Of a stretch of 16,991 nt of DNA, positions 1-16,991 are shown piece after piece. Source of the stretch: a virus (taxonomy: Duplodnaviria > Heunggongvirae > Uroviricota > Caudoviricetes). The position numbers were made by a program, and so were the translations under genes. The stretch spans positions 1 to 16,991 of the IMG/VR virus record IMGVR_UViG_2778261391_000006; one strand, 5' to 3'. The notes under the pieces are model-generated. The model saw only the letters and a program-made list of their open reading frames with translations, did no database searches and had not been told where the DNA came from. How positions within the stretch are numbered: the first letter of the stretch is position 1; each line of letters starts with the position of its first letter.

Positions 1-378
1 ATGATTTTTAGGGATAGCTTGAGAGTATTACCTTATGGTCGAGTAGATAATGATTTCTTCCAGATAGAAGAAAGACGTTCATGGAATGCAGGGCGATATT
101 ATTGGTCTAATAGAAGGATTTTTGGTTATATTGGAATTACTCAATCCAGTAATAAAGAGCTGAAAGATAAGTCGGGGAGAGAGGGATTCATAAGAAACCA
201 GGCTGCAAGAGAACTGAAAACTATTATATCTAATTTGTTAACTGAACTTGCTGATAGATTTTTTGGTTCACGTTCTGATGACCGTAAAGAGCTTTTAGAA
301 CAAGTTAAGCGTGAAAAAGAGTTAAGAAAATCTGCTCAACAACAAGCTCGAAAATCAACACAAAAAAGTTTTTCATAA
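1..378 (+). CDS. Hypothetical protein, 3' end of an ORF that continues upstream of the window; possibly the N-terminal (sensor) part of the downstream kinase-like gene
   Basis: Open frame from the window edge to TAA at 376-378, in the same frame as ORF 382-1719. The downstream ORF has no convincing start or RBS until ATG ~565. No recognisable motif in these 125 aa. Confidence 0.4.
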   Translation: MIFRDSLRVLPYGRVDNDFFQIEERRSWNAGRYYWSNRRIFGYIGITQSSNKELKDKSGREGFIRNQAARELKTIISNLLTELADRFFGSRSDDRKELLEQVKREKELRKSAQQQARKSTQKSFS

Positions 379-381
379 GCT

Positions 382-1719: not shown

Positions 1720-1720
1720 T

Positions 1721-3469: not shown

Positions 3470-3482
3470 TTATTATATTTTA

Positions 3483-3523
3483 GGCGTGGTGATTTTTTTT
3501 CGCCATGCCTATTTTATATTTAT
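3483..3523. terminator. Putative bidirectional terminator between convergent genes
   Basis: Imperfect inverted repeat AGGCGTGG (3483-3490) / CCATGCCT (3504-3511) with a T-rich loop, followed by a T/A-rich tract; lies between the convergent stops at 3469 (+) and 3541 (-). Confidence 0.3.
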
Positions 3524-3540
3524 CATCACAATGATGTTGT

Positions 3541-3957
3541 TTATTTTTGTTTAAGTCTTCTAAGCTTCATGCATTCTAATGAGAATAATAATAGAGTTGT
3601 GCTGTATATAAAGCCAGAGTTAGTTAATAACTTTAAATTTAATGCTTCAGGATTTTCACTGAGAAAGTGAAAGGCATAAACTAAGTATACAGCTAAAGTA
3701 GCCGTTCCAATTGTTGGTCCAATATCGCCTTGATCATGAGGTTCAAGGTTTACATTGAACTTGAAGATTAGCCATTCAAATCCCCAAGTAAAAAAAACAA
3801 CTAATATCATGGCTGCGAATAATTTCGCGATGTTATCTGCTGATGGATTCATCAGAACAGATTGTTTCTGAAAAAATTCACAAAGTGAGAGTCCGAAAAA
3901 AATAAAAAAAAGTGGTCTGGAACTAAATTTTTCAAAAACTTTGAATAGGGTTTCCAT
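3541..3957 (-). CDS. Small multi-pass membrane protein (138 aa), function unknown
   Basis: ATG at 3955-3957 with GAAGG-type RBS ~9 nt upstream; three to four hydrophobic helix-length segments (LFFIFFGLSL, AAMILVVFFTWGFEWLIF, TATLAVYLVYAFHFL, FIYSTTLLLFSL). Starts 38 bp downstream of the integrase stop on the same strand. Confidence 0.5.
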   Translation of the reverse strand: METLFKVFEKFSSRPLFFIFFGLSLCEFFQKQSVLMNPSADNIAKLFAAMILVVFFTWGFEWLIFKFNVNLEPHDQGDIGPTIGTATLAVYLVYAFHFLSENPEALNLKLLTNSGFIYSTTLLLFSLECMKLRRLKQK

Positions 3958-3995: not shown

Positions 3996-5225
3996 TTAGG
4001 CTACCAGAGCATTTGATCTTTGAGCTTGAACGTAATCACTCCACCATTGCATCAAACTCTGTCGCTCTATCAGATATTCTGCACGATTGTATGCTGCGAT
4101 AATTTCATCTTTTTTCGAGTGGGCAAGCGCTGCCTCAAGAACTTCAGCTCTGAATTTACCAGACTCCTCTGCCGCTGTTCGTGCAATAGAACGCATACCG
4201 TGAGCTACAAGCTCGCCTCCGAACCCCATTCGGATGATAGCTGCGTTGGCTGTTTGTTCATGCATATGATTAAGAGGCGCTTTTATGCTGGGGAAAACCC
4301 ATTCTCTATGCCCACTTATTGATTTCATTAATTCAAGGATGCGCAAAGCTTCTTTACTCAAAGGAACTTTGTGAAGCTTTTTCATTTTCATGAAATCAGC
4401 AGGAATGTTCCAAATGCTGTTGGTTGTATCAATATCAGACCACCTTGCGCGAACGGCTTCACCCGGACGAACCCATGTCAACAATTGCCATTCAATTAGC
4501 ATACGTGTTTCCAACCGGATTGACGCATTCGTCAAAGATTCCATAAACCTTGGCAATTCGCTTGGGGGAAGGGCAGGCATATTTTGCTTTTTTGGTTTAC
4601 TGAATCTTTGACCAAGGTTGTCAGCCGGGTTGAACTCAATAAGTTCTTCAGTAGCTGCCCACCGGAAGATTTCATTCAGACGTGAAATGATACGGCGTAG
4701 AGTTTCCAATACGCCTCGTTGCTCAATAGGATCAAGGTGTTGTTTTAAGAGCTTAGGTCGGATCTCATTGATAGGGACATTACCCAGACCGGGAAAGACA
4801 TTTCTCTCTAAGCTGCGCCAGATGTCTGCTGCATGGTCTTGTGAGATACCTGATGTCTTTACCTTCTCATCTAACCATTTCCGCGCTACGGCTTGGAGAG
4901 TGTGCTCAGTAGCACTCTTTAATGCCTTCGCCTTATCGTTGTTATGGATTTGGGGATCAACACCATTTGCCAGAAAGGAGAGATATTCATCACGTAAGGC
5001 TCTGGCTCTTGCAAGGGTAAGGTGAGGATATGTCCCAAGGCTCATTTTGGTTCTTTTCTTGCTCACTGGTACTGCATACCTGAAATACCAATTTTTCTTG
5101 CCTCCTTTCGCCAAAGGAGCGATTCGTAGAATCAGACCATCACCGTCAAACAAGTTGATTTCTTTATCGGCTGGCTTGGTGCTTTTGATTTCAGTGTCAG
5201 TGAGCTTCTTAGCGATTTTTGCCAT
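3996..5225 (-). CDS. int: P4-family tyrosine integrase (site-specific recombinase)
   Basis: N-terminal arm-binding-type region (KLTDTEIKSTKPADK...DGDGLILRI...WYFRY); C-terminal catalytic region with HxxR (LVAHGMRSIA) and Tyr motif (AAYNRAEYL). ATG 5225 has a GAGGG RBS; the ORF could also start at ATG 5267 (no RBS). Confidence 0.9.
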   Translation of the reverse strand: MAKIAKKLTDTEIKSTKPADKEINLFDGDGLILRIAPLAKGGKKNWYFRYAVPVSKKRTKMSLGTYPHLTLARARALRDEYLSFLANGVDPQIHNNDKAKALKSATEHTLQAVARKWLDEKVKTSGISQDHAADIWRSLERNVFPGLGNVPINEIRPKLLKQHLDPIEQRGVLETLRRIISRLNEIFRWAATEELIEFNPADNLGQRFSKPKKQNMPALPPSELPRFMESLTNASIRLETRMLIEWQLLTWVRPGEAVRARWSDIDTTNSIWNIPADFMKMKKLHKVPLSKEALRILELMKSISGHREWVFPSIKAPLNHMHEQTANAAIIRMGFGGELVAHGMRSIARTAAEESGKFRAEVLEAALAHSKKDEIIAAYNRAEYLIERQSLMQWWSDYVQAQRSNALVA

Positions 5226-5390
5226 TTTGGGACCCTCGGTTTTTGGACCCTTCTTAGTGGGTCCCATTCAGGGTGCCATAACTCGTAGTTCTCAGCAATT
5301 CTCACTGGACGACAATAGACGTAAAAAAGCCCGCAGAGCTTGTGCTGTGTGGGCTTAGTAGACTTCATTGAACTTCAAACAACTAAAAAG

Positions 5391-5412
5391 TGGTGGGCTG
5401 GCGGAGTTTGAA
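5391..5412 (-). other. tRNA/tmRNA 3'-end-like motif (candidate att core) between the integrase 5' end and crr
   Basis: Minus-strand reading TTCAAACTCCGCCAGCCCACCA ends in CCA and resembles, with a few indels, the T-arm/acceptor 3' end of tmRNA as I remember it. It lies ~165 bp upstream of the int start, where P4-type att sites sit. Not a complete tRNA. Confidence 0.3.
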
Positions 5413-5559
5413 TAAATATTGTATTGCTTTGATTTTTAATGATTTTGTTTAATTCATTTTTTGTGCGTATACCTAATCGTATACCAATGGTTGTAAGTTA
5501 ATGTGAAATGAAAGCGCATTTTTACTTGGATTGATGCTATATCGTACAGGAAAAAAATT

Positions 5560-5860
5560 TTTTTTCGAAAGAACTGTTCACACTGTTCACCTTTCTGTTT
5601 TCTCCTTTTATTTCAGAGTGATAGGTGGTGAATAATGGGTGAAGGGTGAACATTCGATTCTTCACCTCCGGCATTCTGCCGGTGTGACTTGTGCAGGGGA
5701 TTAATTTCCCGTGCTGAAATCATACCGGAAGAAAAAAAGTTTTTTTTGATTTGATTGTTCACACTGTTCACCTTTCATTTTTCTCTTTTGATTTCAGTGT
5801 GATAACGGGGGAATATACGGTGAAGGGTGAACACTGGATTGTTCACCTTCGGGGGATGTC
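5560..5860. repeat. P4-type cis replication region (crr): two imperfect direct repeats, each carrying TGTTCACC-type iterons
   Basis: Repeat 1 iterons at 5576-5583, 5585-5592 and inverted GGTGAACA at 5645-5652; repeat 2 at 5756-5763, 5765-5772, 5826-5833 and 5840-5847. Units are ~180 bp apart with the same internal order. TGTTCACC is the octamer bound by P4 alpha protein. Confidence 0.8.
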
Positions 5861-5863
5861 GGG

Positions 5864-5891
5864 ATAAAAAAAAGACCGGCAGATGCCGGTC
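5864..5891 (-). terminator. Rho-independent terminator of the leftward operon, just downstream of the alpha stop
   Basis: Minus-strand hairpin GACCGGC-ATCT-GCCGGTC (5874-5891) followed by a U8 tract (plus-strand A-run 5866-5873), 7 nt after the alpha stop codon at 5899-5901. Confidence 0.55.
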
Positions 5892-5898
5892 AGGTGGG

Positions 5899-8232
5899 TC
5901 AGGTTGTTGCAGGGGCGTCACATTTTGGCAGCCAGTCGCCGTAGCTTTCCTCTTTCAGCGTCAGGTTGGTCTGTATCCCCTGTTTGGTATGGCGCTTCTC
6001 GTAATTCAGTCCGTATTCCTTCAGCATCACCGGCAGCCCCAGCCCGAACATTTTCAGACTGAGTACATTCCGGTAGCCGTTTGCCTCCATGTAGGCCAGA
6101 TAGGCGTGATAGAGGTATTTACGGTAATTGCGCGGGATGATACTGGCGTTCCCCATATACATGCCGCTGGTCTGCGGCAGGGTTTCCAGATAGCCGATAA
6201 AATCAAACGTCGGGTCGGCATCCCGTTTGATGTTCAGTGCCTCGTCTGAGTTCTGCTGGGACTGAAGCAGTGACCGGGCGAGCATCGGGTCGCTGAACTT
6301 CTGCATCAGGTGACGCACGATGACCGCCAGCTCGCGGGTGATTTTGTCCTTAAGCTGCGGGTCGCGCTCCTGCGGGGCTATCTGTTCCGGGAAGTGAATA
6401 ATCACCCGCCGGCGTGACACGCCGCCGCTGCGGTCGGTGAAGCGCATCGGGTTATTGTTCACGGCCAGAATCACCGCCGGGATATGCGTGGAGTACGCAT
6501 CCCGGTATTTCGGGTCCACGGACACCGCATCGCCGCCGGTGATGGCCTTGAGTCCGGCACCGTCGCCGCTCCATTTTTCCTGGTCCGGCAGGCGTATCAG
6601 TGAGAAGCCAGTTAACGCGGCACGTTCACGCGGGGATTCCAGCGTCTCGATGGTGGCCGACGTGGCGTTATCCTCCCCGGCCAGCAGGGTGGCTATTTCG
6701 GCCATGATACTTTTGCCGCTGCCGCCAGGACCGGTCACCTCCAGAAAGAGCTGCCAGTCGTAGCGGTTTGCCAGCACCATAAACAGTGCGGCCAGAATCA
6801 CGTCGCGTTTTTCCGCACGGCCACCGGCGGCACGGTCAAGCCAGCGCCAGAACGCGGGGGCGTGGGTCTCCAGCGTTTCACCGTCCACCGGCGGGGTGAA
6901 ATCCACATCGCACAGGGTGCGCATCCAGTGTGACGGACTGTGCGGGTGGAACGTGCCGTTCTGCGTGTCGAGCACGCCGTTACGAAAGCCAATCAGGCGG
7001 CGGGAGGGGGCTTCCTGCTGCGGAATAATCAGCTTCAGGGTGTCCACCACGGAGGCCACCTTCCCGGAGGAGAACGGCGCGCGCAGACGCTGAAACAGCC
7101 CGGCCACATCCCGGGCAAAGTCCTGTGGCGGCAGCACCTTCCAGACACCATTTTCATAACGGGACAGAAGCTGGCCGTTGGCATCGACCGCGAGCGCCTC
7201 GCCGTAATGCTCATAGATACGCATGGCCTTTTCGCTGGTACTCATGGCGGAAAACTCTGCTTCGCTCATGGTGTCGAACGGGCTTTCAGCCGGTGGCCGG
7301 ATGGCATCATAAATGGCCTTACGGGTGGCCTCCCCGCCGTACTGCGTGAAGGCATCATTCCAGTCACCGAAGACCGGCGGCAGGGCAACAACACCTTCAC
7401 ACGCATCTGCGGCTGCGGCGGCTTTTTTCTGGCCGTCACCGCTGAGGTCACGGTCTGCGGCAAGGACAATCTGACAGGCCGGATGCTTCTGCCGGGCAAG
7501 GCTGGCCAGAGAAAGGAGGTTCACGGAAGAAAGCGCCACCATCACCGTTTCCCCGGTCAGGTGATGCACGGTAAGTGCGGTCGCGTATCCCTCCGCTATC
7601 CACAGACGTTTTCCGGCCTGATTCTGTCCTTCAAGGGTGTGACAGGTGCCCCTGACCTGTCCGCCTTTCAGGGTGCGCTTACGGCCGTCAGCACTGATTA
7701 ACTGAAGGTTAACCAGTTCGCCGCTGTCGTCATACAGTGGCACCACAAGGTCACCGGCGCGCCAGCTCACGCCACCGGCTCTGTGTGTGCCGGTCAGCAT
7801 CCGGCATTCCCGGTCGGGAAAGCCCTTGCGGGTCAGGTAGGCGTTACCGGTTCCGGGCCGGGTTTTTGCCATCAGGGTTTGTGCCAGTGCGGCGGCGTTC
7901 TTCCGGGCAGCGTCTGTTTCAGCACCGGCGGCGGCCGTCACTGCCGGGTCAGCCGGGGGCAGGCTGCCGGTCACGGCAGCCACCTTTGCGGCCGCGTCGG
8001 ACGGGGAAACACCAAACACCTTTTCAACCAGTTTCAGGCCGTCACCGGCACCACACTGATTGCAGTACCAGGTGCCGCGCCCCTCCCTGTCATCAAAACG
8101 GAAGCGGTCACTCCCGCCACAGACCGGACAGGGCTGATGACGGTTCTTCAGCACCTGAATCCCCAGCGCCGGGAGAATACGCGGCCAGTGGCCGAGCGCA
8201 TGGCTGACGGTGGCGGTTACGTTCATTTTCAT
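5899..8232 (-). CDS. alpha: P4 alpha-type replication protein (primase-helicase with origin-binding domain), 777 aa
   Basis: Zinc-binding motif CPVCGG...CNQCG near the N-terminus; primase EGYATA motif (WIAEGYATALT); Walker A GPGGSGKS; AAGGAGA RBS before ATG 8232. Length equals P4 alpha; iterons of the type it binds are present at crr and ori. Confidence 0.95.
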   Translation of the reverse strand: MKMNVTATVSHALGHWPRILPALGIQVLKNRHQPCPVCGGSDRFRFDDREGRGTWYCNQCGAGDGLKLVEKVFGVSPSDAAAKVAAVTGSLPPADPAVTAAAGAETDAARKNAAALAQTLMAKTRPGTGNAYLTRKGFPDRECRMLTGTHRAGGVSWRAGDLVVPLYDDSGELVNLQLISADGRKRTLKGGQVRGTCHTLEGQNQAGKRLWIAEGYATALTVHHLTGETVMVALSSVNLLSLASLARQKHPACQIVLAADRDLSGDGQKKAAAAADACEGVVALPPVFGDWNDAFTQYGGEATRKAIYDAIRPPAESPFDTMSEAEFSAMSTSEKAMRIYEHYGEALAVDANGQLLSRYENGVWKVLPPQDFARDVAGLFQRLRAPFSSGKVASVVDTLKLIIPQQEAPSRRLIGFRNGVLDTQNGTFHPHSPSHWMRTLCDVDFTPPVDGETLETHAPAFWRWLDRAAGGRAEKRDVILAALFMVLANRYDWQLFLEVTGPGGSGKSIMAEIATLLAGEDNATSATIETLESPRERAALTGFSLIRLPDQEKWSGDGAGLKAITGGDAVSVDPKYRDAYSTHIPAVILAVNNNPMRFTDRSGGVSRRRVIIHFPEQIAPQERDPQLKDKITRELAVIVRHLMQKFSDPMLARSLLQSQQNSDEALNIKRDADPTFDFIGYLETLPQTSGMYMGNASIIPRNYRKYLYHAYLAYMEANGYRNVLSLKMFGLGLPVMLKEYGLNYEKRHTKQGIQTNLTLKEESYGDWLPKCDAPATT

Positions 8233-8246
8233 GGTGTTGTTCTCCT

Positions 8247-8567
8247 TCAGTGCAGTACCGGCGCTTTTATGTGACGGGCACAGAGTTCATCCATCACAAC
8301 CAGCCCGAGAAAGGACAGCGACGGCGCTGCCTTCAGGGGGCCGGATTCCATTAAATCTTCCAGCAGGGCACAGGCTATCTGACGCCCTTTTTCCTCACCG
8401 TGCTGGCGCAGATAAAAGCCTTCCAGCTCAGCGGCGATGGCCGCCTCCAGTGATTCAAGGGTGAGATGCGGGTAGCGGTGCTGACGTTCGCACACGGTCA
8501 GCCAGGCACAGGCGACAGCGCGACGGTAAAGGGCTGCGCGTAAGACGGGCGGTAAGGGTGTTTTCAT
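8247..8567 (-). CDS. Hypothetical protein, 106 aa, in the position and size of P4 orf106
   Basis: ATG 8565-8567 with strong GGGAGGAAA RBS; ends 14 bp before the alpha start on the same strand. Confidence 0.6.
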
Positions 8568-8702
8568 TTGCTTTCCTCCCTGTGACAGATGACTGCATTC
8601 CGTGCCGGTTGCATTAACTGATAAGGCATATCTGCGTCTCCTGAAGACGTGCGTATCCCTGCGCGAATACGCACATTTAATTTTTCGGGTGTCGTTTTTT
8701 AA

Positions 8703-9158
8703 TTACAGATAATTGCGGTAACTGTTATCCGGGGTGATTTCCGGGTCAGGCTCCGTGCGGGGAATTTCCCGCCATTCCCGCGCCACCGGTGCCGCCCGGC
8801 TGACCGGAACAGTGTCCTGCGGGTAAATATCCAGATATTTCTCCCGCCATTTCTGTAATTCCGGGTCTCCGGCCATTTCTTTCAGTACCGCATGCCGGTT
8901 TACGGGGCTGCGTTTAAACAGGTCAGGACGGTCACAGGTAAATTCCCGCAGAAAACGCCCCAGCGGGATGTCTGTGGTGCGCCCGTCAGCGAGGATACGC
9001 ACAAGGATACTGAATTTACGGCGGTACGGGTTCCAGACAATGTCCGGGCAGCGGTACGGCATTTCCCACGGAATACCGTCTTCCAGAATGCCGACCACGG
9101 CCACATCGGGAAAACCGGCAGAACGGTAAATCTCACCGGGCTGGGGAAAATCAAACAT
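8703..9158 (-). CDS. Hypothetical protein, 151 aa, in the position and size of P4 orf151
   Basis: ATG 9156-9158 with GGAGA RBS; overlaps the epsilon stop by 8 nt, consistent with translational coupling in the left operon. Confidence 0.6.
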   Translation of the reverse strand: MFDFPQPGEIYRSAGFPDVAVVGILEDGIPWEMPYRCPDIVWNPYRRKFSILVRILADGRTTDIPLGRFLREFTCDRPDLFKRSPVNRHAVLKEMAGDPELQKWREKYLDIYPQDTVPVSRAAPVAREWREIPRTEPDPEITPDNSYRNYL

Positions 9159-9438
9159 GCGTCCTGTCTCCCCGGTCTTTCTGCTGGGCGAGAAAATCGC
9201 GGCACAGGCCTTTGGCTTTCAGCTCATTCAGCACAAAATCAATATCTTCATTCAGGTAGCTGAAAATATGCGGAATGTAGAGCTGATGCAGGCCGGAGAG
9301 TTCACGGTGAATCAAATCACCCCCAACAAACTGGGATACGGCGCTGGCGCGGTTGAGCTTATGGTAAGCCTCAATGCTGAGGTGTTCACGGGCGTCATGA
9401 CGCGCTGAGACGGTCTGAGGGGCTTTTTTATTACGCAC
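9151..9438 (-). CDS. epsilon: Probable epsilon-like protein (P2-repressor antagonist / derepression protein position), 95 aa
   Basis: ORF with GTG start and no internal Met, in the expected place between the immunity region and orf151. Assigned by synteny only. Confidence 0.45.
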
Positions 9439-10021
9439 GGGACACCCCCATCACCGGCAGACGGGCAGCAAGGGAGAGCACATAGTCACGGACAAGGGAA
9501 CGGCGGGCGCTGCGTTCATCACCGGCGACGGTGCGAAGCATACAGATACGGGGATGACGGTCTGCGCGACGGACAGCCGCAAACACAAAGACAAATTCAG
9601 GGTGTGAGGGGGTAAGGGTCGTAGCCATAAGGCAACCTCCGATAACAGCGTAAATGACGCTATCGCCGGAGTTCTCACGCTCGATGGCGATAGCCCAGAC
9701 GGGGGTGAGAATACCGGCGTTATCGGATACCGGCCAGCCCGAAGGCTGCCCCGCCTGAGCTACCATTGACTCAGTGGCATAACATGCGATTGCGAACAGG
9801 ATCATACCTGCACGGCAAACCACACGCCACACCATAATCTGGCGCTCTGTGGCGTTGATTGCGACACAAAAAAAGACGCATGGCGCGTCATATGTCGCCG
9901 ATAACATACTCGGGTTCTCACGCCCGGCTGCCGATTTTGCGGCAGCGGAAAAACTATATCCGCAAATGCCGGAAAAAGGCAAGCCAGAAAAAGGGAGTTT
10001 TTGCAGAGCGGGCATCATCAT
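9431..10021 (-). CDS. ORF in the left-operon leader/immunity region (kil/eta-equivalent position); boundaries uncertain
   Basis: Start ATG 10019-10021 overlaps the vis stop in an ATGA arrangement, but a good promoter candidate lies inside this ORF, so the real product may start further downstream or the frame may be a GC-rich artefact. Confidence 0.25.
9439..9945 (-). other. Leader/immunity region of the left operon, where a P4-type CI RNA and its complementary seq elements are expected
   Basis: Region between the candidate early promoter and the epsilon start. By P4 architecture the processed immunity RNA lies here; I could not place it by sequence. Confidence 0.3.
9953..9982 (-). promoter_or_regulatory. 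Candidate early leftward promoter (PLE-like), sigma70-type
   Basis: Minus-strand TTGCCT (-35, plus 9977-9982), 18-bp spacer, TATAGT (-10, plus 9953-9958); lies ~395 bp downstream of the candidate late promoter, matching the P4 PLL-PLE spacing. Confidence 0.4.
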
Positions 10022-10284
10022 GCGTCGTACCCCCGTTTGCGTCCGGCAATGCGCCCGGCCATCCATGCGGTGATTTCAGAGTGCAGCCAGGCCACATTTT
10101 TACCGCCAAGGCTCACCTGCGGTGGAAATTCCCCCTTACGGATAAGTTCATAGATGGTCGAGCGTGACAGGCCGCACAGGTGCATCACTTCCGGCAGACG
10201 TAAAAAACGCTCCTGTGTGATATCCGGCAGCGGAATCAGTGGCGTCACAGGGGCGGGAGACGGGGAAGAAAAAACAGCTTGCAT
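10018..10284 (-). CDS. vis: Vis / AlpA-family small DNA-binding regulator-excisionase, 88 aa
   Basis: AlpA-type HTH core [50 protein letters not shown]; ATG 10282-10284 with GAGGT RBS; first gene after the leftward late promoter, as in P4. Confidence 0.85.
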
Positions 10285-10386
10285 CGGGCTACCTCGTTAA
10301 TGTCCATACAGCACCGGATAAGTCCGTCCGGCTTCGGGTAGCGCTTTATTTTGTGAATATTTTTGGCAGACGCAACAGGGGGGATT

Positions 10387-10404
10387 TGTTCAGGCAGCCT
10401 TACA
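10387..10404 (-). promoter_or_regulatory. Late leftward promoter activator site (PLL-like), TGT-N12-ACA dyad
   Basis: TGT(10387-10389)-N12-ACA(10402-10404), about 100 bp upstream of the vis start; this dyad is the Ogr/Delta site of P2/P4 late promoters. Confidence 0.5.
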
Positions 10405-10563
10405 ATGGCTGTGTGTTTTTTATCCATCCGGACTGGAAGGGTCTCAAAGGGTTCTGAAGGACCTGGAATTTTTTATAGTGAAATACAAATTGTTTTTTCT
10501 TATTCATTCCCGGCGAATTAATAAAAACAAACAGTAGTAAACAGCACAAAAAGTCCATGAGCG

Positions 10564-10668
10564 GGTGAACAGTGGTGAACAGACGGTGAACAGTCATTAC
10601 TGCGATTGTTCACCCTTTAACTTACTGTATTACTTATCTTTTTTATTAAGGTGAACAGAGGTGAACAG
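10564..10668. repeat. P4-type origin of replication: six type I iterons around an AT-rich spacer
   Basis: GGTGAACAG at 10564-10572, 10574-10582, 10585-10593, 10650-10658, 10660-10668 and inverted TGTTCACC at 10607-10614; AT-rich stretch 10616-10649. Same octamer as in crr, ~4.9 kb away. Confidence 0.75.
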
Positions 10669-10746
10669 TAAAATATAAAAAAACAAACAGTAAGCCGGTT
10701 TTTCCTGCGACCTTTTCCTGGCTTGCCGGTGTGAGGATGAGTCTCC

Positions 10747-10764
10747 TGTGTCAGGGCTGGCACA
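10747..10764 (+). promoter_or_regulatory. Late rightward promoter activator site (Psid-like), TGT-N12-ACA dyad
   Basis: TGT(10747-10749)-N12-ACA(10762-10764), ~80 bp upstream of the sid ATG, the expected position for a -55-centred activator site. Confidence 0.55.
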
Positions 10765-10836
10765 TCTGCAATGCGTCGTGTTGTTGTCCGGTGTACGTCA
10801 CAATTTTCTTAACCTGAAGTGACGAGGAGCCGGAAA

Positions 10837-11571
10837 ATGTCTGACAACACCATCCCTGAATATCTGCAACCCGCACTGGCACAACTGGAAAAGGCCAGAG
10901 CCGCCCATCTTGAGAACGCCCGCCTGATGGATGAGACCGTCACGGCCATTGAACGGGCAGAGCAGGAAAAAAATGCGCTGGCGCAGGCCGACGGAAACGA
11001 CGCTGACGACTGGCGCACGGCCTTTCGTGCAGCCGGTGGTGTCCTGAGCGACGAGCTGAAACAGCGCCACATTGAGCGCGTGGCACGCCGGGAACTGGTA
11101 CAGGAATATGACAATCTGGCCGTGGTGCTGAATTTTGAACGCGAACGCCTGAAAGGGGCGTGTGACAGCACGGCCACCGCCTACCGGAAGGCACATCATC
11201 ACCTTCTGAGTCTGTATGCAGAGCATGAGCTGGAACACGCCCTGAATGAAACCTGTGAGGCGCTTGTCCGGGCAATGCATCTGAGCATTCTGGTACAGGA
11301 AAATCCGCTCGCCAACACCACCGGCCATCAGGGCTACGTCGCACCGGAAAAGGCTGTCATGCAGCAGGTGAAATCATCGCTGGAACAGAAAATTAAACAG
11401 ATGCAAATCAGCCTCACCGGCGAGCCGGTTCTCCGGCTGACCGGACTGTCAGCGGCAACACTTCCTCACATGGATTATGAGGTGGCAGGCACACCGGCAC
11501 AGCGCAAGGTGTGGCAGGACAAAATAGACCAGCAGGGAGCAGTGCTTAAGGCCAGAGGACTGCTGTCATGA
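10837..11571 (+). CDS. sid: Sid-type external capsid-size-determination scaffold protein, 244 aa
   Basis: ATG 10837 with GAGGAG RBS at 7-nt spacing (the track's 10819 start has no RBS); coiled-coil-rich; length and position match P4 Sid; stop overlaps the delta start (ATGA). Confidence 0.85.
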   Translation: MSDNTIPEYLQPALAQLEKARAAHLENARLMDETVTAIERAEQEKNALAQADGNDADDWRTAFRAAGGVLSDELKQRHIERVARRELVQEYDNLAVVLNFERERLKGACDSTATAYRKAHHHLLSLYAEHELEHALNETCEALVRAMHLSILVQENPLANTTGHQGYVAPEKAVMQQVKSSLEQKIKQMQISLTGEPVLRLTGLSAATLPHMDYEVAGTPAQRKVWQDKIDQQGAVLKARGLLS

Positions 11572-12068
11572 TTTACTGCCCGTCGTGTGGTCATGTTGCT
11601 CACACCCGCCGCGCACATTTCATGGACGATGGCACCAAGATAATGATTGCACAGTGCCGGAATATTTATTGCTCTGCGACATTTGAAGCGAGTGAAAGCT
11701 TTTTCTCTGACTGTAAAGATTCAGGAATGGAATACATTTCAGGCAAACAGAGATACCGCGATTCACTGACGTCAGCCTCCGGCAGTATGAAACGGCCGAA
11801 AAGAATGCTTGTTACCGGATATTGTTGTCGGAGATGTAAAGGCCTTGCACTGTCAAGAACATCGCGGCGTCTGTCTCAGGAAGTCACCGAGCGTTTTTAT
11901 GTGTGCACGGATCCGGGCTGTGGTCTGGTGTTTAAAACGCTTCAGACCATTAACCGTTTCATTGTCCGCCCGGTCACGCCGGACGAACTGGCAGAAAGCC
12001 TGCATGAAAAACAGGAACTGCCGCCAGTACGCTTAAAAACACAATCATATTCGCTGCGTCTGGAATGA
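11568..12068 (+). CDS. delta: Delta-type late transcriptional activator (tandem Ogr-like zinc-finger protein), 166 aa
   Basis: Two Ogr-like zinc-finger halves: CPSCGH...C...YC and CCRRCKG...C...C; translationally coupled to sid; length equals P4 Delta. Confidence 0.9.
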   Translation: MIYCPSCGHVAHTRRAHFMDDGTKIMIAQCRNIYCSATFEASESFFSDCKDSGMEYISGKQRYRDSLTSASGSMKRPKRMLVTGYCCRRCKGLALSRTSRRLSQEVTERFYVCTDPGCGLVFKTLQTINRFIVRPVTPDELAESLHEKQELPPVRLKTQSYSLRLE

Positions 12069-12141
12069 GGGCTGCCGGTTAACACCGGCCGTCGCCGCAC
12101 ACCGTATTTTTATTCTTCAGCATGATGAGAAAGAGATAACG

Positions 12142-12714
12142 ATGGAAAGCACAGCCTTACAGCAGGCCTTTGACACCTGTCAGAATAACAAAGCAGCATG
12201 GCTGCAACGCAAAAATGAGCTGGCAGCGGCCGAACAGGAATACCTGCGGCTTCTGTCAGGAGAAGGCAGAAACGTCAGTCGCCTGGACGAATTACGCAAT
12301 ATTATCGAAGTCAGAAAATGGCAGGTGAATCAGGCCGCTGGTCGTTATATTCGTTCGCATGAAGCCGTTCAGCACATCAGCATCCGCGACCGGCTGAATG
12401 ATTTTATGCAGCAGCACGGCACAGCACTGGCGGCGGCACTGGCACCGGAGCTGATGGGCTACAGTGAGCTGACGGCCATTGCCCGAAACTGTGCCATACA
12501 GCGTGCCACAGATGCCCTGCGTGAAGCCCTTCTGTCCTGGCTTGCGAAGGGGGAAAAAATTAATTATTCCGCACAGGATAGCGACATTTTAACGACCATC
12601 GGATTCAGGCCTGACGCGGCTTCGGTGGACGACAGCCGTGAAAAATTTACCCCTGCGCAGAACATGATTTTTTCGCGTAAAAGTGCGCAACTGGCATCAC
12701 GTCAGTCTGTGTAA
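12142..12714 (+). CDS. psu: Psu-type polarity suppression / capsid decoration protein, 190 aa
   Basis: Third gene of the sid-delta-psu late operon; length and position match P4 Psu; followed by cos. Confidence 0.8.
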   Translation: MESTALQQAFDTCQNNKAAWLQRKNELAAAEQEYLRLLSGEGRNVSRLDELRNIIEVRKWQVNQAAGRYIRSHEAVQHISIRDRLNDFMQQHGTALAAALAPELMGYSELTAIARNCAIQRATDALREALLSWLAKGEKINYSAQDSDILTTIGFRPDAASVDDSREKFTPAQNMIFSRKSAQLASRQSV

Positions 12715-12740
12715 AATTTCCCGAAAATCCGCCTGTTTTT

Positions 12741-12777
12741 ACTGAAAAAAGCCATGCATCGATAAGGTGCATGGCTT
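12741..12777 (-). terminator. Putative terminator (hairpin plus T-tract on the minus strand) between psu and cos
   Basis: Perfect 10-bp stem AAGCCATGCA / TGCATGGCTT (12749-12758 / 12768-12777) with a 9-nt loop; on the minus strand it is followed by TTTTTT (plus-strand A-run 12745-12750). Could stop the integrase-cargo transcript and possibly psu read-through. Confidence 0.4.
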
Positions 12778-12878
12778 TGCATGCGTTTCCCTGCCTCATT
12801 TTCTGCAGACCGCGCCATTCCCGGCGCGGTCTGAGCGTGTCAGTGCAACTGCATTAAAACCGCCCCGCAAAGCGTGCG

Positions 12879-12897
12879 GGCGAGGCGGGGAAAGCAC
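12879..12897. other. cos site: P2/P4-type 19-nt cohesive end sequence
   Basis: Exact GGCGAGGCGGGGAAAGCAC, which I recall as the P2/P4 cohesive end, at the position expected from P4 (just after psu). Confidence 0.8.
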
Positions 12898-12911
12898 TGC
12901 GCGTAGCGATA

Positions 12912-14684
12912 TTAAATATCCCACAATTTTTCTAAATCAAGAGTATCGCTGTTAGGAGCATTTTCCTCAGCTAATCTGTCGATTTGAACAAGTAATGGGG
13001 TGTGGAAAGCTGTTCCTGAAACTATACACCCACCAGGAGGAAGTGTTGGAATTAGTGATCTTGATGCCGCATCAAGGGTGCTTAAAGTATTTTTTAACAA
13101 AAACAAATCATTTTCGTTCACTAATCGATGAATAAAATAATTATGAAGTTGGGAAACAATTGTGGGAGAGATGTCAAAAGGTCGTTGACTCGAAATTGTA
13201 ACGAAGAACCCAAACTTCCTTCCCTCTTTTATTATTTCCTCAAATAACTCAAGCCTATAATCTTTCCATGTTTCCGCCTCTCTGACAGATGTTTCAGACA
13301 ATATGTTGTGTGCTTCATCTATAATTAGGTGGAAGCTTTCCTTTGTATTTTTAGATGACTTGTGCTCTAAGAATGAACATTTTGCAAGCATCATTGGAAT
13401 GGTTTTTTTGATTAATTGATTGCACTCTTTTAATGACACTATATATATAGGTTTTTTATTTTTTGTTTCGTTTCTGATATTAATTACTTTGGATAGGGCA
13501 GGAGTCATTGCCGTTATTTTATTAATTAGCGGATATATATGATCATATTGTACATAATTACGTGATACTGAATTAATTAGTTGTAGAATAGATCGGATTG
13601 CAACTTCATCAAAAACGCTGTTTAACTTAAACTTGGATTTATATGTTGCATCTAAAGCCTGTAAAGCATCTTCCATTTTATCAATGAAGTTGTATTTTGA
13701 GTGCAAATACTTATTTTGCCCAGAATGCCATGAGAATTGTGATAACTCTTCAAGTATTTTACCCTGTGCTCTCTCTGAAAAGTAAGGGGCAAGGCTTTTT
13801 AATAAATTTATTGTTTCCCTGTGTGGATTAGGAGAAAACATACTGTGGATAGTTGTTTGTAAGTAATCCTCCAATTTACCATTATATTTTTCTCTATTTT
13901 TAATTAAATGACTAAGAAATGGCTTTTGAGTTTTTTCAGTTGCAGAAAACAATACCGATAATAATTCATCATCCCAAAATTCATCATCAGTGAAAGTTAG
14001 TTTATCACCGGAATTCTTTGTGTTGAGATTGACTTGTTCGCACAAATCTGGAAATGACGTAGCAAATGTGCTGTATTCACCATTAAAATCAATCAAAACA
14101 AAACTTGATTTTGATATAACTCTTTCTTTTGTTGTTATAAGGTTTATTAGAGAGTGATAAAGTTTTGCAAGAGTGTTGGACTTGCCACTTCCAGTGTTTC
14201 CAAATATGCCTATGTGTGAATTAAAAATACCATTTATTGGTATGTTAATTGGCAACTCCTCTAACATAGATTTCCCTATGTTTATTAAAGGTGCTTTAGT
14301 GTTTTTGCTAAACTTATATATTTCTGATATCTTCTCGTCTGAAATTAAGTGTAAGCTGTCATTTATCATTGGTAAAAATTTTATACCGGAATAAAATGAA
14401 CTCTCAAAAAAATACCCTAAAATATTCAGTTCTACAAAACGGTCATATTTTTTTTGTTCAATTTCATCGCTTCTAATATTGATGTTTTCAACAATTTCTT
14501 CACCAATAATCTTTCCGACGATATCGTGATAACCTTTTTTAATCAAAACAAATTCATTTATAGAGATACCTCGTAGTATTTTACCTTTATGAAAGTATGT
14601 TGACTGAAAAAAGTCATGATTGATTTTGGCCCTTACTGTTGTGCCCTTTATTTGGGTAACATTACCAACAATTAGTTCTTCCAT
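12912..14684 (-). CDS. herA: HerA-like ATPase (HerA/FtsK-type), partner of the SIR2 protein in the SIR2-HerA (Nezha) defence system
   Basis: Walker A GIFGNTGSGKSNT; Walker B/DEAH LIIDEAHN; C-terminal RKFGFFVTISSQRPFDI-type segment typical of HerA; ATG 14684 with GGAGA RBS; overlaps the upstream SIR2 gene by 13 nt. Confidence 0.85.
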   Translation of the reverse strand: MEELIVGNVTQIKGTTVRAKINHDFFQSTYFHKGKILRGISINEFVLIKKGYHDIVGKIIGEEIVENINIRSDEIEQKKYDRFVELNILGYFFESSFYSGIKFLPMINDSLHLISDEKISEIYKFSKNTKAPLINIGKSMLEELPINIPINGIFNSHIGIFGNTGSGKSNTLAKLYHSLINLITTKERVISKSSFVLIDFNGEYSTFATSFPDLCEQVNLNTKNSGDKLTFTDDEFWDDELLSVLFSATEKTQKPFLSHLIKNREKYNGKLEDYLQTTIHSMFSPNPHRETINLLKSLAPYFSERAQGKILEELSQFSWHSGQNKYLHSKYNFIDKMEDALQALDATYKSKFKLNSVFDEVAIRSILQLINSVSRNYVQYDHIYPLINKITAMTPALSKVINIRNETKNKKPIYIVSLKECNQLIKKTIPMMLAKCSFLEHKSSKNTKESFHLIIDEAHNILSETSVREAETWKDYRLELFEEIIKEGRKFGFFVTISSQRPFDISPTIVSQLHNYFIHRLVNENDLFLLKNTLSTLDAASRSLIPTLPPGGCIVSGTAFHTPLLVQIDRLAEENAPNSDTLDLEKLWDI

Positions 14685-15787
14685 GTAATCCAATCTCCGT
14701 GTTCAGATCTAAATACTCTATCTATAAACGGTTTAAATGAAATTGTATGATCATCTTCTATAGGAAGAATATAGGTTATTCGTTGGTCATTGATAATGTG
14801 CTGTATACTTTCCATGCTGGATTTTGAGTAGCAAAAAACAAAGACCTTAAGAGTAGGGTTACTTAATGATCTTTTTATAATCTCACGTATGTGTTCATCT
14901 TGAAAAGAAAAACCAAAACAAATTAATACAGTTTGTGGTTTCTCTAATTCATAACTTAGCAATCGTAAACATTGGTAATAATGTTGTTGAAAAACAGTTT
15001 CAGAAAATTTTTCTTTAGTTGGGCTAACTATAGCTAAGTTGTTGTAATAAGATTTAAATTCTTGAAGTGTTTCTTGATCGCTTGTAGATAAATTTAAATA
15101 ACTAACGAGATTATCGCTTGTTTCGTTTAAGGTGGTGACTAAATCATTAATGTCTTTTTTTGTATCTAGTCTAAACTTTGGTGGTTCTTCTTGAGTGTAA
15201 TTAATACTAATCGTTTCATTAATATCTCTACACCAAGAAACAGAACCATGCATTTTTATTAAGTTTACTGTTGGAATTTCATGTTTGTACATATCATGCG
15301 TACCTTGATGCCAAGCAGTAATATGAAAATTACTAATGTTCAATTTCCGGCTTTTGAAACCTAGACCACCGTCATTGAAATGAAATGTTTTATTATTTAA
15401 AATATCATCAGCCGCAGTTTCGAAAAAAAGATCATAATTTGTTGTAAAAATATTCGCTCGCCTTATTTGATTTGCCCCTTTTTTCTCTAATAATTTGATT
15501 AGTTCATCAATAAAGTAGCTATAGTTTGCTAAAGTAGAATTATATTTTTTGTCTTCACTATTAGGTTTAACACAAAATGTTTTTCTAATGATATTATTGA
15601 AATAAGAACATAATATGAAGTCCTTGACACCCTCACAATCCTCATGTGTAAGTAATGTTTCATAAGTAGTGTTTTTATCTAGATAGAGAGTAGGAATATA
15701 TGAAGCAGAGGAGCCTGAGCCAAATAAAAAATTTATATTTTTATCATAGATATTTGAGGCTTTGCATGGAAAATCTTTATTATTCAT
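14672..15787 (-). CDS. SIR2-family (sirtuin-like NAD+-binding) protein, first gene of the SIR2-HerA defence operon
   Basis: Rossmann glycine loop FLFGSGSSASYIP; TTNYD motif (sirtuin TQNID-like); catalytic-His-type MHGS; ATG 15785-15787 with AAGGA RBS; starts 7 bp after the integrase stop. Confidence 0.85.
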   Translation of the reverse strand: MNNKDFPCKASNIYDKNINFLFGSGSSASYIPTLYLDKNTTYETLLTHEDCEGVKDFILCSYFNNIIRKTFCVKPNSEDKKYNSTLANYSYFIDELIKLLEKKGANQIRRANIFTTNYDLFFETAADDILNNKTFHFNDGGLGFKSRKLNISNFHITAWHQGTHDMYKHEIPTVNLIKMHGSVSWCRDINETISINYTQEEPPKFRLDTKKDINDLVTTLNETSDNLVSYLNLSTSDQETLQEFKSYYNNLAIVSPTKEKFSETVFQQHYYQCLRLLSYELEKPQTVLICFGFSFQDEHIREIIKRSLSNPTLKVFVFCYSKSSMESIQHIINDQRITYILPIEDDHTISFKPFIDRVFRSEHGDWITWKN

Positions 15788-15797
15788 CACTATATCC

Positions 15798-16991
15798 TTA
15801 TTTGTTTTTTGAAATGAAACTACCCCACCAATTCATAAGCTCTTTTCTTTGTTCCAAGTAGGTTGTTCGATTATATGCTCTTCTAACCTCATTTTTATCA
15901 CAATGGGAAAGTGCTGCTTCGATAATATCTGGATTTATACCAGCTTCATTCATTGCTGTACTTGCTATCGAACGCAGTCCGTGTGCAACCAACTTACCAC
16001 CATAACCGATGCGCTTTAAGGCTGCATTTGCCGTCTGACTGTTCATTGGTTGATTGGGGTTATTCCTGCTAGGAAAAATATATTCTCGATGTGAACTGAT
16101 TGGCTTCATAATTTCAAGAATATCTAATGTCTGAAGTGATAATGGAACAATATGTTCCCGCTTTGCCTTCATTCTATTGGCTGGTATTATCCATAGTTTA
16201 GCTTCGAAATCGATCTCTATCCACTTTGCATTGGAAGCTTCTGCAGGGCGTACAAGTGTTAAGAGTTGCCATTCAATCAAACAACGAGTTGGAATAGATA
16301 AATTAGACATTGTTATTGAACGCATGAGTTTCGGTAATTCTTCAGGTCTAAGCGTTGGCATGTGCTGTTTTTTAGGTTTTTCAAATGCCATACCAATGCC
16401 TGAAGCAGGGTTAGCATCTATCAGACCAGTATTAACAGCATAAATCATAATTTCATTAATACGTTGTACTAAACGACGAACAGTCTCAAGTGCCCCACGA
16501 GCTTTAATTGGCTCTAGGGCTTCAATTAATGTGCGGGCTTTTATTTCCTGAACAGGAATCTCACCGATAGCAGGGAAAATGTCCCTCTCTAAGGATCGCC
16601 ATATATCCTTTGCATAATCAGGTGTGACGTTATTGCTTTTTATGGCAAACCAATTTGTGGCAACTTTTGAAAAAATACTATCAATCGCAATCTGTTGATG
16701 TTCTGAGACTTGCTTACTGTATGTTTGTGGATCAATACCCCGGGCTAATAAGGAAAGATACTCAGCACGCACGTTTCTGGCCTCAGCCAGAGATAGGGCG
16801 GGGAACGTTCCTAAACTAATCATGGTTCTCTGTTTTGATACAGGCTTCTGGTATCGGAAACGCCACAACTTCCTTCCGTTCGTTTTTATGAGTAGAAAAA
16901 GCCCATCACCATCATGTAGCGTTAGATCCTTTTCAGTTGCTTTAGCACGTGATAGTTCAGTGTTAGTAAGAGGGCGTGTTGTACGTGCCAC
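15798..16991 (-). CDS. int: P4-family tyrosine integrase (second copy, distinct sequence); 5' end at or just beyond the window edge
   Basis: Same architecture as the first integrase (LTNTELSRAKATEKD...DGDGLFLLI...WRFRY; HxxR LVAHGLRSIA; Tyr motif RRAYNRTTYL) but clearly diverged. The frame is open to the window end, so the true start may lie outside. Confidence 0.9.
   Translation of the reverse strand: MARTTRPLTNTELSRAKATEKDLTLHDGDGLFLLIKTNGRKLWRFRYQKPVSKQRTMISLGTFPALSLAEARNVRAEYLSLLARGIDPQTYSKQVSEHQQIAIDSIFSKVATNWFAIKSNNVTPDYAKDIWRSLERDIFPAIGEIPVQEIKARTLIEALEPIKARGALETVRRLVQRINEIMIYAVNTGLIDANPASGIGMAFEKPKKQHMPTLRPEELPKLMRSITMSNLSIPTRCLIEWQLLTLVRPAEASNAKWIEIDFEAKLWIIPANRMKAKREHIVPLSLQTLDILEIMKPISSHREYIFPSRNNPNQPMNSQTANAALKRIGYGGKLVAHGLRSIASTAMNEAGINPDIIEAALSHCDKNEVRRAYNRTTYLEQRKELMNWWGSFISKNK

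Follow-up and report, generated by a model that had tools for sequence, protein, structure and literature searches.

The window, by which we mean the whole stretch of 16,991 nucleotides analysed here, very probably carries a SIR2-HerA abortive-infection operon as the sole cargo in the defence hotspot next to cos in an E. coli prophage that is a complete P4 satellite. In both genomes matching the window throughout, this prophage lies beside ssrA. Both the system and its position in the P4 hotspot are already known, and the finding is correct but ordinary. It nonetheless offers a clean textbook case of the hotspot principle, a 97%-P4 satellite whose gop/beta/cII/int arm has been swapped for a predicted NAD+-depleting abortive-infection system and a different integrase.

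An overlapping gene pair of foreign composition

Two long open reading frames on the minus strand together fill positions 12912-15787:

12912-14684, minus strand: HerA gene, 590 aa from its ATG, predicted hexameric ATPase partner
14672-15787, minus strand: SIR2 gene, 371 aa from its ATG, predicted NADase effector
14672-14684, minus strand: overlap of the SIR2 stop and the HerA start, exactly 13 nt as read from the sequence, with the same boundaries in RefSeq

Mechanical calling starts the HerA frame at a TTG at 14693, where we prefer the ATG, and the SIR2 frame at a GTG at 15790, one codon upstream of its ATG; the ATG-based boundaries of both genes are those of the RefSeq annotation in near-identical genomes. 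Within the overlap the SIR2 frame reads ...TGG ATT ACA TGG AAG AAC TAA and the HerA frame ATG GAA GAA CTA, and a GGAGA is present 9 nt upstream of the HerA ATG. The GC content of the cargo is 0.309, compared with 0.562 for the P4 backbone and 0.405 for the integrase gene, and open reading frames of 590 and 371 codons in DNA of 31% GC are not attributable to chance. Direct reading of the sequence thus bears out the 13-nt overlap described in the original prediction, and the AT-rich character that it gave to the operon is equally clear (31% GC, against 56% in the neighbouring backbone). The order SIR2 then HerA is kept in all homologous loci that were examined.

Protein families, motifs and fold

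Both proteins are members of the SIR2-HerA defence families and retain every catalytic and ATPase motif. Profile searching with PADLOC assigned the two to the SIR2-HerA system rather than to unrelated families, the SIR2 protein matching profile PDLC04089 (E=4.1e-65) together with Pfam SIR2_2, and the HerA protein matching profile PDLC04097 (E=1.1e-192, spanning profile positions 5-612 of 618) together with Pfam DUF87. The SIR2 and HerA motifs had been called clear from the letters alone, and so they proved. Numbered from the ATG, SIR2 contains GSGSS at 23-27, TTNYD at 115-119 and HGS at 180-182, and G23-S24-G25-x-S27, TTN117YD and H180GS do not vary among 20 homologues reaching as far as Listeria and Mycoplasmatales; N117 and H180 align with N226 and H287 of the S. 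aureus Sir2, which are experimentally defined catalytic residues. HerA has a Walker A motif GNTGSGKS (with Lys168) and a Walker B motif LIIDEAH, and both line up with the same motifs of solved defence HerAs (9c1m, 8yho, 8wiv, 8j4u). The PGAP labels of the two proteins are only 'SIR2 family protein' and 'ATP-binding protein'; judging by these labels, annotation pipelines under-call this SIR2-HerA subtype.

An AF2 model of SIR2 (pLDDT 83.8, pTM 0.86) was compared with the PDB by Foldseek, and ranks 1-39 are taken up entirely by SIR2 chains from SIR2-HerA entries (E 3.5e-15 to 6.9e-10), ordinary sirtuins (Hst2/SIRT2) appearing only from E=8.5e-5 or weaker. The modelled fold is therefore of the HerA-associated type, closest to the SIR2 subunits of three solved SIR2-HerA complexes. 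By sequence, the nearest solved HerA comes from a HerA-DUF4297 system and not from a SIR2-HerA system.

A complete P4 satellite

The full P4 complement of alpha, epsilon, CI RNA, vis, sid, delta, psu, cos and int is present and intact in the element that carries the operon. The element matches P4 (NC_001609) at 97.4% nucleotide identity over window positions 5552-12878, which run from crr to the right cos end, and homology to linear P4 stops at 12878, corresponding to the P4 right end at 11624. Pfam matches were obtained for the core genes int, alpha, epsilon, alpA/vis, delta and psu, with sid identified by collinearity instead:

5899-8232, minus strand: alpha primase-helicase (Pfam Zn_Ribbon_Prim, Toprim_3, D5_N, DUF5906 and Pox_D5; P4 homology)
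9151-9438, minus strand: epsilon, helper derepression protein (Pfam Derepression family, E=7.7e-51)
9683-9770, minus strand: C4 / CI immunity RNA (Rfam, above gathering score)
9869-9946, near the C4 RNA: isrK RNA (Rfam, above gathering score)
9907-9959, near the C4 RNA: a1/b1 target (Rfam, above gathering score)
10018-10284, minus strand: AlpA/Vis-type excisionase-regulator (Pfam Phage_AlpA, E=3.9e-21), equivalent to P4 ORF88
10837-11571, plus strand: sid, capsid size determination, intact, collinear with P4 sid (9583-10317) and with the same boundaries in locus L001
11568-12068, plus strand: delta, Ogr/Delta transactivator (Pfam Ogr_Delta; P4 homology)
12142-12714, plus strand: psu, polarity suppression / capsid decoration (Pfam Psu, E=1.3e-88; 97.4% nucleotide identity to P4), the last backbone gene before cos
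12861-12874, minus strand: weak candidate terminator, a hairpin followed by a T-run, downstream of HerA and just beyond cos, from a consensus scan whose site count was not above that of shuffles
12879-12897, plus strand: cohesive-end 19-mer of P2/P4 cos, GGCGAGGCGGGGAAAGCAC, an exact match and the left boundary of the cargo

The Rfam scores were 76 bits for RF01695, 71 bits for RF01394 and 51 bits for RF03163, all above their gathering scores. A distance of 14 nt separates the cos 19-mer from the HerA stop codon, and the 19-mer was absent from every one of 200 shuffles of the window (200/200).

The cargo position and its other occupants

HerA-SIR2 replaces the P4 genes gop/beta/cII exactly, between cos and int, and is the only cargo there, so that the original placement of the operon in the variable cargo position of P4 stands. 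Homology to backbones that are ∼98.5-99% identical and carry other cargos breaks at 12905-12916; in NZ_CP025856, for example, the same backbone at the same locus holds an AAA ATPase and DUF4435 pair instead of SIR2-HerA. A hotspot directly adjoining cos in P4 has been described by Rousset et al. 2022 (Cell Host Microbe, PMC9122126), who name SIR2+HerA among its known systems and list in a supplementary table the row 'SIR2_2 + DUF87, WP_072834289 + WP_094122396'. These two proteins are annotated in NZ_CP075663, a genome 98.7% identical to the whole window, and the window proteins differ from them by 4 residues in SIR2 and 2 in HerA. It had been suggested that the system was already described and that the interest lay in its location on a satellite; the system is indeed published, but the location is not new either, since it is in the same study.

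The integrase and the ssrA locus

The remaining features of the satellite are found at its two ends:

5389-5412, plus strand: degenerate copy of the ssrA 3' end, AGTGGTGGGCTGGCGGAGTTTGAA, aligning with the true ssrA 3'-end region of locus L002, at the far end (attL side) of the satellite
15798-16991, minus strand: tyrosine integrase, 397 aa (Pfam Arm-DNA-bind_3, Phage_int_M and Phage_integrase)

From the ssrA remnant to the integrase the element measures ∼11.6-11.7 kb, the size of P4. The integrase adjoins ssrA in both of the genomes that match the whole window, and in L002 ssrA lies ∼185 nt beyond int. Strain GDAR2-2, which is without the neighbouring island, is homologous to the window from 5394 onwards. 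We looked for a perfect att direct repeat and found none, the ends showing instead the degenerate ssrA 3'-end copy and, at 82% identity, a copy of the stretch that immediately follows ssrA; such imperfect repeats fit a tandem array of islands at ssrA and not a fresh integration. A tRNA scan of the whole window found none, consistent with the ssrA locus and not with the leuX site used by P4.

The integrase allele (at least 99% identity) is present in 12 of 5426 complete E. coli genomes, and these are the same 12 that carry the SIR2-HerA cassette. In this set the allele occurs only with SIR2-HerA cargo, a strict linkage that suggests turnover of the hotspot by whole-arm swap. The linkage is visible at the allele level within E. 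coli only: integrase identity is otherwise 75-80% whatever the cargo, a strain with AAA ATPase and DUF4435 included, so that co-divergence of int and SIR2 is not demonstrable at that depth.

The junction between int and SIR2

A gap of 10 nt separates the end of the integrase gene, at 15798, from the SIR2 ATG that follows it, and the two genes are joined by a compact element:

15788-15800, minus strand: int-SIR2 junction, TAAGGATATAGTG, in which the int stop TAA overlaps the SIR2 ribosome-binding site AAGGA

This TAAGGA junction is kept across genera, in homologous loci whose SIR2 shares only 53-75% identity. A crude consensus scan found no terminator-like element between int and SIR2; for minus-strand promoters upstream of SIR2 in the 3' end of int the scan gave no site, an uninformative result since its total sites were not above those of shuffles. 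Given the 10-nt gap, the overlap of the SIR2 ribosome-binding site with the int stop and the lack of an intervening terminator in that scan, int and the operon probably share a transcript, a reading based on anatomy (the spacing and the crude scan). Co-transcription with int would keep the operon constitutively expressed at a low level in the lysogen.

At three loci (L005-L007) a homologous int-SIR2-HerA module is found with the rest of the satellite missing, and a search for exact matches to the cos 19-mer in homologous loci L004, L008, L009 and L012 found none. We tentatively propose, as a possibility on which we would place less than even weight, that the unit exchanged and maintained is the whole cos-to-att left arm, int-SIR2-HerA, as one transcription unit in which the integrase promoter drives a NADase defence; such a module would be cohesive over deep divergence, would persist next to smpB (the ssrA locus) as a minimal island once the remainder of the satellite is lost, and would have a trigger and gating unlike those of Nezha and of type III.

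Proposed mechanism

By analogy with characterised relatives (PMC11472057, PMC11514289, PMC13434337), a HerA hexamer would dock onto a two-layered SIR2 ring, and phage infection would release the complex from inhibition. SIR2 would then hydrolyse NAD+ to ADP-ribose and nicotinamide, while HerA would hydrolyse ATP and may nick DNA. The infected cell would presumably stop growing before the phage cycle ends, and both the clonal population and the resident satellite would be protected.

Alternative readings

The original prediction had named the operon Nezha, a name that holds in the loose sense of any SIR2-HerA system and fails in the strict one. As Nezha proper (E. coli cluster 1; PDB 8J4U/8SU9) the pair would form a pre-primed complex held by high ATP and fired passively by the fall of ATP during phage replication. 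It has the same domain pair and gene order, SIR2 chains from E. coli Nezha head its list of structural matches, and alignment to this characterised E. coli system, which had been put forward as a check, matched the catalytic Asn and His and the Walker motifs. However, that alignment gives SIR2 only 28% identity to 8J4U over only 228 aligned residues (E=2e-13), identity falls to 17-19% in structural alignments, and HerA matches the Nezha HerA in two partial stretches (E=1.6e-22); the NCBIfam equivalogs SIR2_antiphage and HerA_antiphage reach 80 and 119 bits, with cut-offs of 500 and 800 respectively. Nezha is restricted to one of eight E. coli Sir2-HerA clusters by Zhang et al. 2026 (PMC13434337), who clustered E. 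coli Sir2 at 70% identity such that distant pairs are separate subtypes, and who find that a type III HerA is unable to replace the HerA of other subtypes. Membership of the 70%-identity cluster of WP_021577683 / 8J4U is rejected at this degree of identity and with the NCBIfam cut-offs missed; by the same clustering rule the pair would, from its sequence, fall in a different cluster, and we regard Nezha proper as improbable.

The pair might also be a decaying or inactive passenger, a hotspot remnant without current function. Carriage by only 12 of the 5426 E. coli genomes, the int-SIR2-HerA modules found apart from the rest of the satellite and a split HerA in one Pantoea copy (L010) would all suit such a remnant. 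Against it, both frames are full length and equal to the RefSeq lengths, every catalytic and ATPase motif is intact, the window proteins differ from other E. coli copies by only 2-4 amino acids, and dN/dS does not exceed 0.16 over deep divergence (homologues of 53-75% identity, for which synonymous sites are saturated), all of which makes a passenger very improbable. Barely credible, to our minds, is a function outside defence, for instance in housekeeping as a DNA-repair helicase of HerA type paired with a sirtuin deacetylase: the weak NCBIfam matches to archaeal double-strand-break repair HerA and the ordinary sirtuins in the tail of the fold search are far outscored by defence-specific profiles and structures, no NurA, Mre11 or Rad50 partner is present, and the genes lie on AT-rich foreign DNA in a hotspot whose other occupants are defence systems. 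A role directed more to the satellite than to the host, in excluding rival phages and satellites or in sparing or manipulating the P2 helper, with expression tied to the integrase circuit, is doubtful though far from negligible. The strict linkage of int allele and cargo and the conserved overlap of the SIR2 ribosome-binding site with the int stop both accord with it, as does the framing of hotspot cargos as weapons of phages and their satellites by Rousset et al. 2022 (PMC9122126); this role, however, can hold alongside the main explanation and does not compete with it. We retain the reading of a SIR2-HerA abortive-infection operon as sole hotspot cargo of a complete P4 satellite, and, within the same strong overall confidence that we give to that reading as a whole, SIR2 and HerA would be an intact operon maintained by selection.

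Subtype assignment

Recent work shows that trigger and gating vary between SIR2-HerA subtypes. In the study of Zhang et al. 2026 (PMC13434337), robust anti-phage activity was seen in only four of the eight E. coli clusters, namely Nezha and types I-III, with gating that differs by subtype, and type III has a Sir2 catalytic N238, a HerA Walker Lys188 and a nickase Asp218. Type III was considered as a candidate for the present pair and rejected on a comparison of residue numbering only, Sir2 N238 and HerA Lys188/Asp218 being set against N117 and K168 here. Type I, type II and the four clusters without robust activity are all possible assignments for the pair.

Comparison with known systems

The satellite has the gene order and the RNAs of P4 (NC_001609), from which it differs in that the whole left arm, P4 1-4290 (gop, beta, cII, a 440-aa int and attP), is replaced by HerA, SIR2 and the 397-aa integrase. 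Its cargo is the same thing as the SIR2+HerA hotspot cargo of Rousset et al. 2022 (PMC9122126), with no substantive difference. Identity to characterised SIR2-HerA systems in structural alignments is 14-19%. E. coli Nezha (PDB 8J4U, 8SU9; Sir2 WP_021577683) is alike in its two-gene architecture, catalytic Asn/His and Walker motifs, whereas the SIR2 described here is shorter at the N-terminus, its residue 35 aligning to residue 84 of the 415-residue chain. Types I-III of Zhang et al. 2026 (PMC13434337) are divergent E. coli subtypes with anti-phage activity and an abortive-infection-like collapse of growth. In the S. aureus and Paenibacillus sp. 453MF SIR2-HerA systems (PDB 8YHX; 8W9L/8WLD) the SIR2 fold and catalytic residues align with those of the window protein, and HerA aligns over its full length; identity in structural alignments is 14-17%, and those systems, unlike the operon reported here, are not on a P4 satellite.

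Genomic location of the SIR2-HerA gene pair

A scan of the window for open reading frames shows that 12912-15787 is occupied by two long minus-strand genes, with start codons corresponding to those of the RefSeq annotation in near-identical genomes. The features at and around this location are as follows.

5389-5412: degenerate copy of the ssrA 3' end
12879-12897: cos, an exact 19-nt P2/P4 cohesive end, directly past the end of linear-P4 homology
12912-14684, minus strand: HerA, 590 aa, ATG start
14672-15787, minus strand: SIR2, 371 aa, ATG start
15798-16991, minus strand: int, a 397-aa tyrosine integrase

The HerA and SIR2 genes overlap by exactly 13 nt, and have a GC content of 30.9% as compared with 56.2% in the adjacent backbone and 40.5% in the integrase gene. 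The SIR2 protein contains the motifs GSGSS, TTNYD and HGS, and HerA contains Walker A (GNTGSGKS) and Walker B (LIIDEAH) motifs, such that the original prediction, made from the sequence alone, was accurate in describing an AT-rich operon with clear SIR2 and HerA motifs and a 13-nt overlap. We note that PGAP also reports a 62-aa 'hypothetical protein' (WP_072038093; 12767-12955, plus strand) that spans cos and overlaps the 3' end of HerA in antisense orientation; Pfam gives no match for it, and this call across cos is probably spurious.

The carrier is closely related to canonical P4, with 97.4% identity between 5552-12878 and the segment of P4 from the crr region (P4 4291) to the right end (P4 11624). 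It encodes the P4 proteins alpha, ORF106/DUF5375, ORF151, epsilon, the Ash/cI reading frame, AlpA/Vis, sid, delta and psu, together with the C4/CI immunity RNA, isrK and the a1/b1 target. The HerA stop codon lies 14 nt from cos. In P4, the next 4.3 kb after cos hold gop, beta, cII, a 440-aa integrase and attP, whereas here this arm is swapped for HerA, SIR2 and the 397-aa integrase; the cargo therefore sits exactly where it had been proposed to be, between cos and the integrase in the variable position that P4 fills with gop, beta and cII. In the two complete genomes matching the whole window (98.6-98.7% identity) int is ∼185 nt from ssrA, and the ssrA 3'-end copy at 5389-5412, together with the start at 5394 of homology to a strain without the neighbouring island, indicates an element of ∼11.6-11.7 kb, which is P4-sized.

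The sid gene is intact in the window (10837-11571) but is annotated as frameshifted in strain STEC2017-197 (locus L002, 18853-19586), and these otherwise near-identical satellites may thus differ in redirecting capsid size. In E. coli GDAR2-2 a P2-like prophage with genes for an integrase, CI, a gpA-type replication endonuclease, portal and terminase lies directly beside the integrase of the satellite (locus L001, 19577-33101), so that a potential helper and its satellite are in tandem at one locus.

Exchange and persistence of the cargo

Many E. coli genomes match the window at ∼98.5-99% up to 12905-12916 and then diverge. E. coli 504838 (NZ_CP025856) shares both the backbone and its ssrA locus, with an AAA ATPase and a DUF4435 protein, the domain pair of PARIS, encoded on the opposite strand (locus L003, 22065-24382) in the place of SIR2-HerA. 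Of 5426 complete genomes, 12 carry the SIR2-HerA cassette, in every case with psu on one side and int on the other, and three more contain a variant with 76% identity. The int allele (at ≥99% identity) occurs in all 12 cassette-bearing genomes and in no others, with the next-best allele at 82%; int and cargo therefore travel together within E. coli. The integrase beside the AAA ATPase and DUF4435 genes shares only 74% DNA and 80% protein identity with int. Sequence comparison suggests that the unit swapped at this hotspot is the whole cos-to-att arm, including int.

The int stop codon and the SIR2 start codon are separated by 10 nt, and the SIR2 ribosome-binding site overlaps the int stop (TAAGGA), a junction also seen in three other homologous loci in which SIR2 is only 53-75% identical; in a Pantoea locus the int and SIR2 genes share 8 nt. 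No terminator-like site was identified between the genes in a consensus scan, which would make co-transcription with int likely. Three loci (L005-L007; 8001-10873 plus flanks) contain int-SIR2-HerA only, with SIR2 75% identical, downstream of smpB where ssrA lies; no P4 backbone genes follow in any of the three, and these modules look like minimal islands left by satellite decay. HerA is split in a Pantoea copy (locus L010).

The P4 hotspot directly beside cos was described by Rousset et al. 2022 (PMC9122126), who name SIR2+HerA among the known systems there and include the supplementary table entry 'SIR2_2 + DUF87, WP_072834289 + WP_094122396'. NZ_CP075663 is annotated with these two accessions, from which the window proteins differ by four and two residues, respectively, so that the satellite location of this same pair of proteins was already on record. 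The original prediction rightly regarded the system as already described, and saw its interest in a satellite location that is real but has also been published (PMC9122126); it is correct in both observation and interpretation, and the finding is already known.

A second island and a tandem array at ssrA

A second AT-rich island (33.6% GC), in tandem with the satellite, comprises positions 1-3957 and an integrase gene.

1-1719, plus strand: histidine-kinase-like ATPase, Pfam HEF_HK and HATPase_c
1703/1721-3469, plus strand: 588-aa protein with a Response_reg_2 receiver domain; ∼400 C-terminal residues without assignment
3541-3957, minus strand: small gene, 138-aa protein, no family assigned
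3996-5267, minus strand: second integrase, only 46% identical to int at 15798-16991

None of the island genes matches a PADLOC model, and the island resembles a conflict or defence module, so far uncatalogued, in the ssrA array. The ATPase gene is split in this strain (1-378 and 382-1719) by a TAA nonsense codon at 376-378; the codon is GAA (Glu126) in two other genomes, which encode an intact 572-aa protein. Upstream of the second integrase, at 5307-5412 (L002 25107-25213), are a copy (82% identical) of the sequence just 3' of ssrA, a segment that looks like a terminator hairpin, and the degenerate ssrA 3' end. These ssrA-derived copies fit with successive integrations at ssrA having built the tandem array.

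Family assignment and proposed mechanism

Both proteins match the PADLOC SIR2-HerA models, HerA nearly end to end (E=1.1e-192) and SIR2 with E=4.1e-65, and Pfam assigns them to DUF87 (the HerA central domain) and SIR2_2, respectively; they are thus not members of unrelated families. A search of a large protein collection yielded 1610 relatives at E≤1e-5, and 20 of these, ranging from 75% down to 38% identity and from Enterobacterales to Listeria, Planomicrobium and Mycoplasmatales, were aligned. SIR2 residues G23-S24-G25-x-S27, T115-T116-N117-Y118-D119 and H180-G181-S182 and a C-terminal FGFSFxDxH are invariant. In a HMMER alignment N117 and H180 correspond to N226 and H287 of S. aureus Sir2 (chain 8yhx_G), which the authors of that structure report as catalytic and contacting the ADP-ribose product (PMC11514289); the catalytic residues are therefore present.

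An AlphaFold2 model of SIR2 built on this alignment is confident (pLDDT 83.8, pTM 0.86), and in a Foldseek search of the PDB its best 39 matches are exclusively SIR2 subunits from the three solved SIR2-HerA systems, those of E. coli (Nezha), S. aureus and Paenibacillus (E=3.5e-15 to 6.9e-10), with ordinary sirtuins entering only from E=8.5e-5. Alignments of HerA to solved defence HerAs run along the protein and bring the Walker motifs into line. In comparisons with homologues of 53-75% identity, saturation is seen at synonymous sites and dN/dS does not exceed 0.16 where computable; purifying selection thus acts on both genes.

The identities, motifs, fold, operon structure and genomic position of the pair are thus directly documented, and its mode of action is proposed from characterised relatives (PMC11472057, PMC11514289, PMC13434337). 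By analogy, a HerA hexamer would dock on a double-layered SIR2 ring, and phage infection would lift inhibition of the complex; SIR2 would then hydrolyze NAD+ to ADP-ribose and nicotinamide, with HerA consuming ATP and perhaps nicking DNA, and the infected cell would arrest, aborting the phage cycle.

Relationship to characterised SIR2-HerA systems

No characterised SIR2-HerA system is a close relative of the pair. Nezha (PDB 8J4U/8SU9) SIR2 matches with E=2e-13 and 28% identity across 228 aligned residues (17-19% in structural alignments with the model), and Nezha HerA with E=1.6e-22 in two partial stretches. Scores against the NCBIfam anti-phage equivalogs are 80 bits for SIR2 (cut-off 500) and 119 for HerA (cut-off 800), which may be why PGAP gives the products no more specific names than 'SIR2 family protein' and 'ATP-binding protein'. 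E. coli Sir2-HerA systems form eight clusters at 70% identity, with the name Nezha reserved for cluster 1 (Zhang et al. 2026, PMC13434337); the predicted label of Nezha thus holds in the broad SIR2-HerA sense but not in the strict one. The active types I-III share 13-22% mutual identity, and four of the eight clusters had no robust activity (PMC13434337). Type III differs from Nezha in gating, and its HerA fails to substitute for that of other subtypes (PMC13434337). We considered and rejected type III, since its residues are Sir2 N238 and HerA K188/D218 (PMC13434337) and comparison of residue numbering gives N117 and K168 as the equivalents here of N238 and K188. The pair may belong to type I, type II or one of the four clusters lacking robust activity. 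Among solved HerAs, the one from the HerA-DUF4297 system (9c1m, E=3e-29; 8xau) is the nearest by sequence and outranks those of SIR2-HerA systems, a hint of modular recombination between defence HerAs and their effectors.
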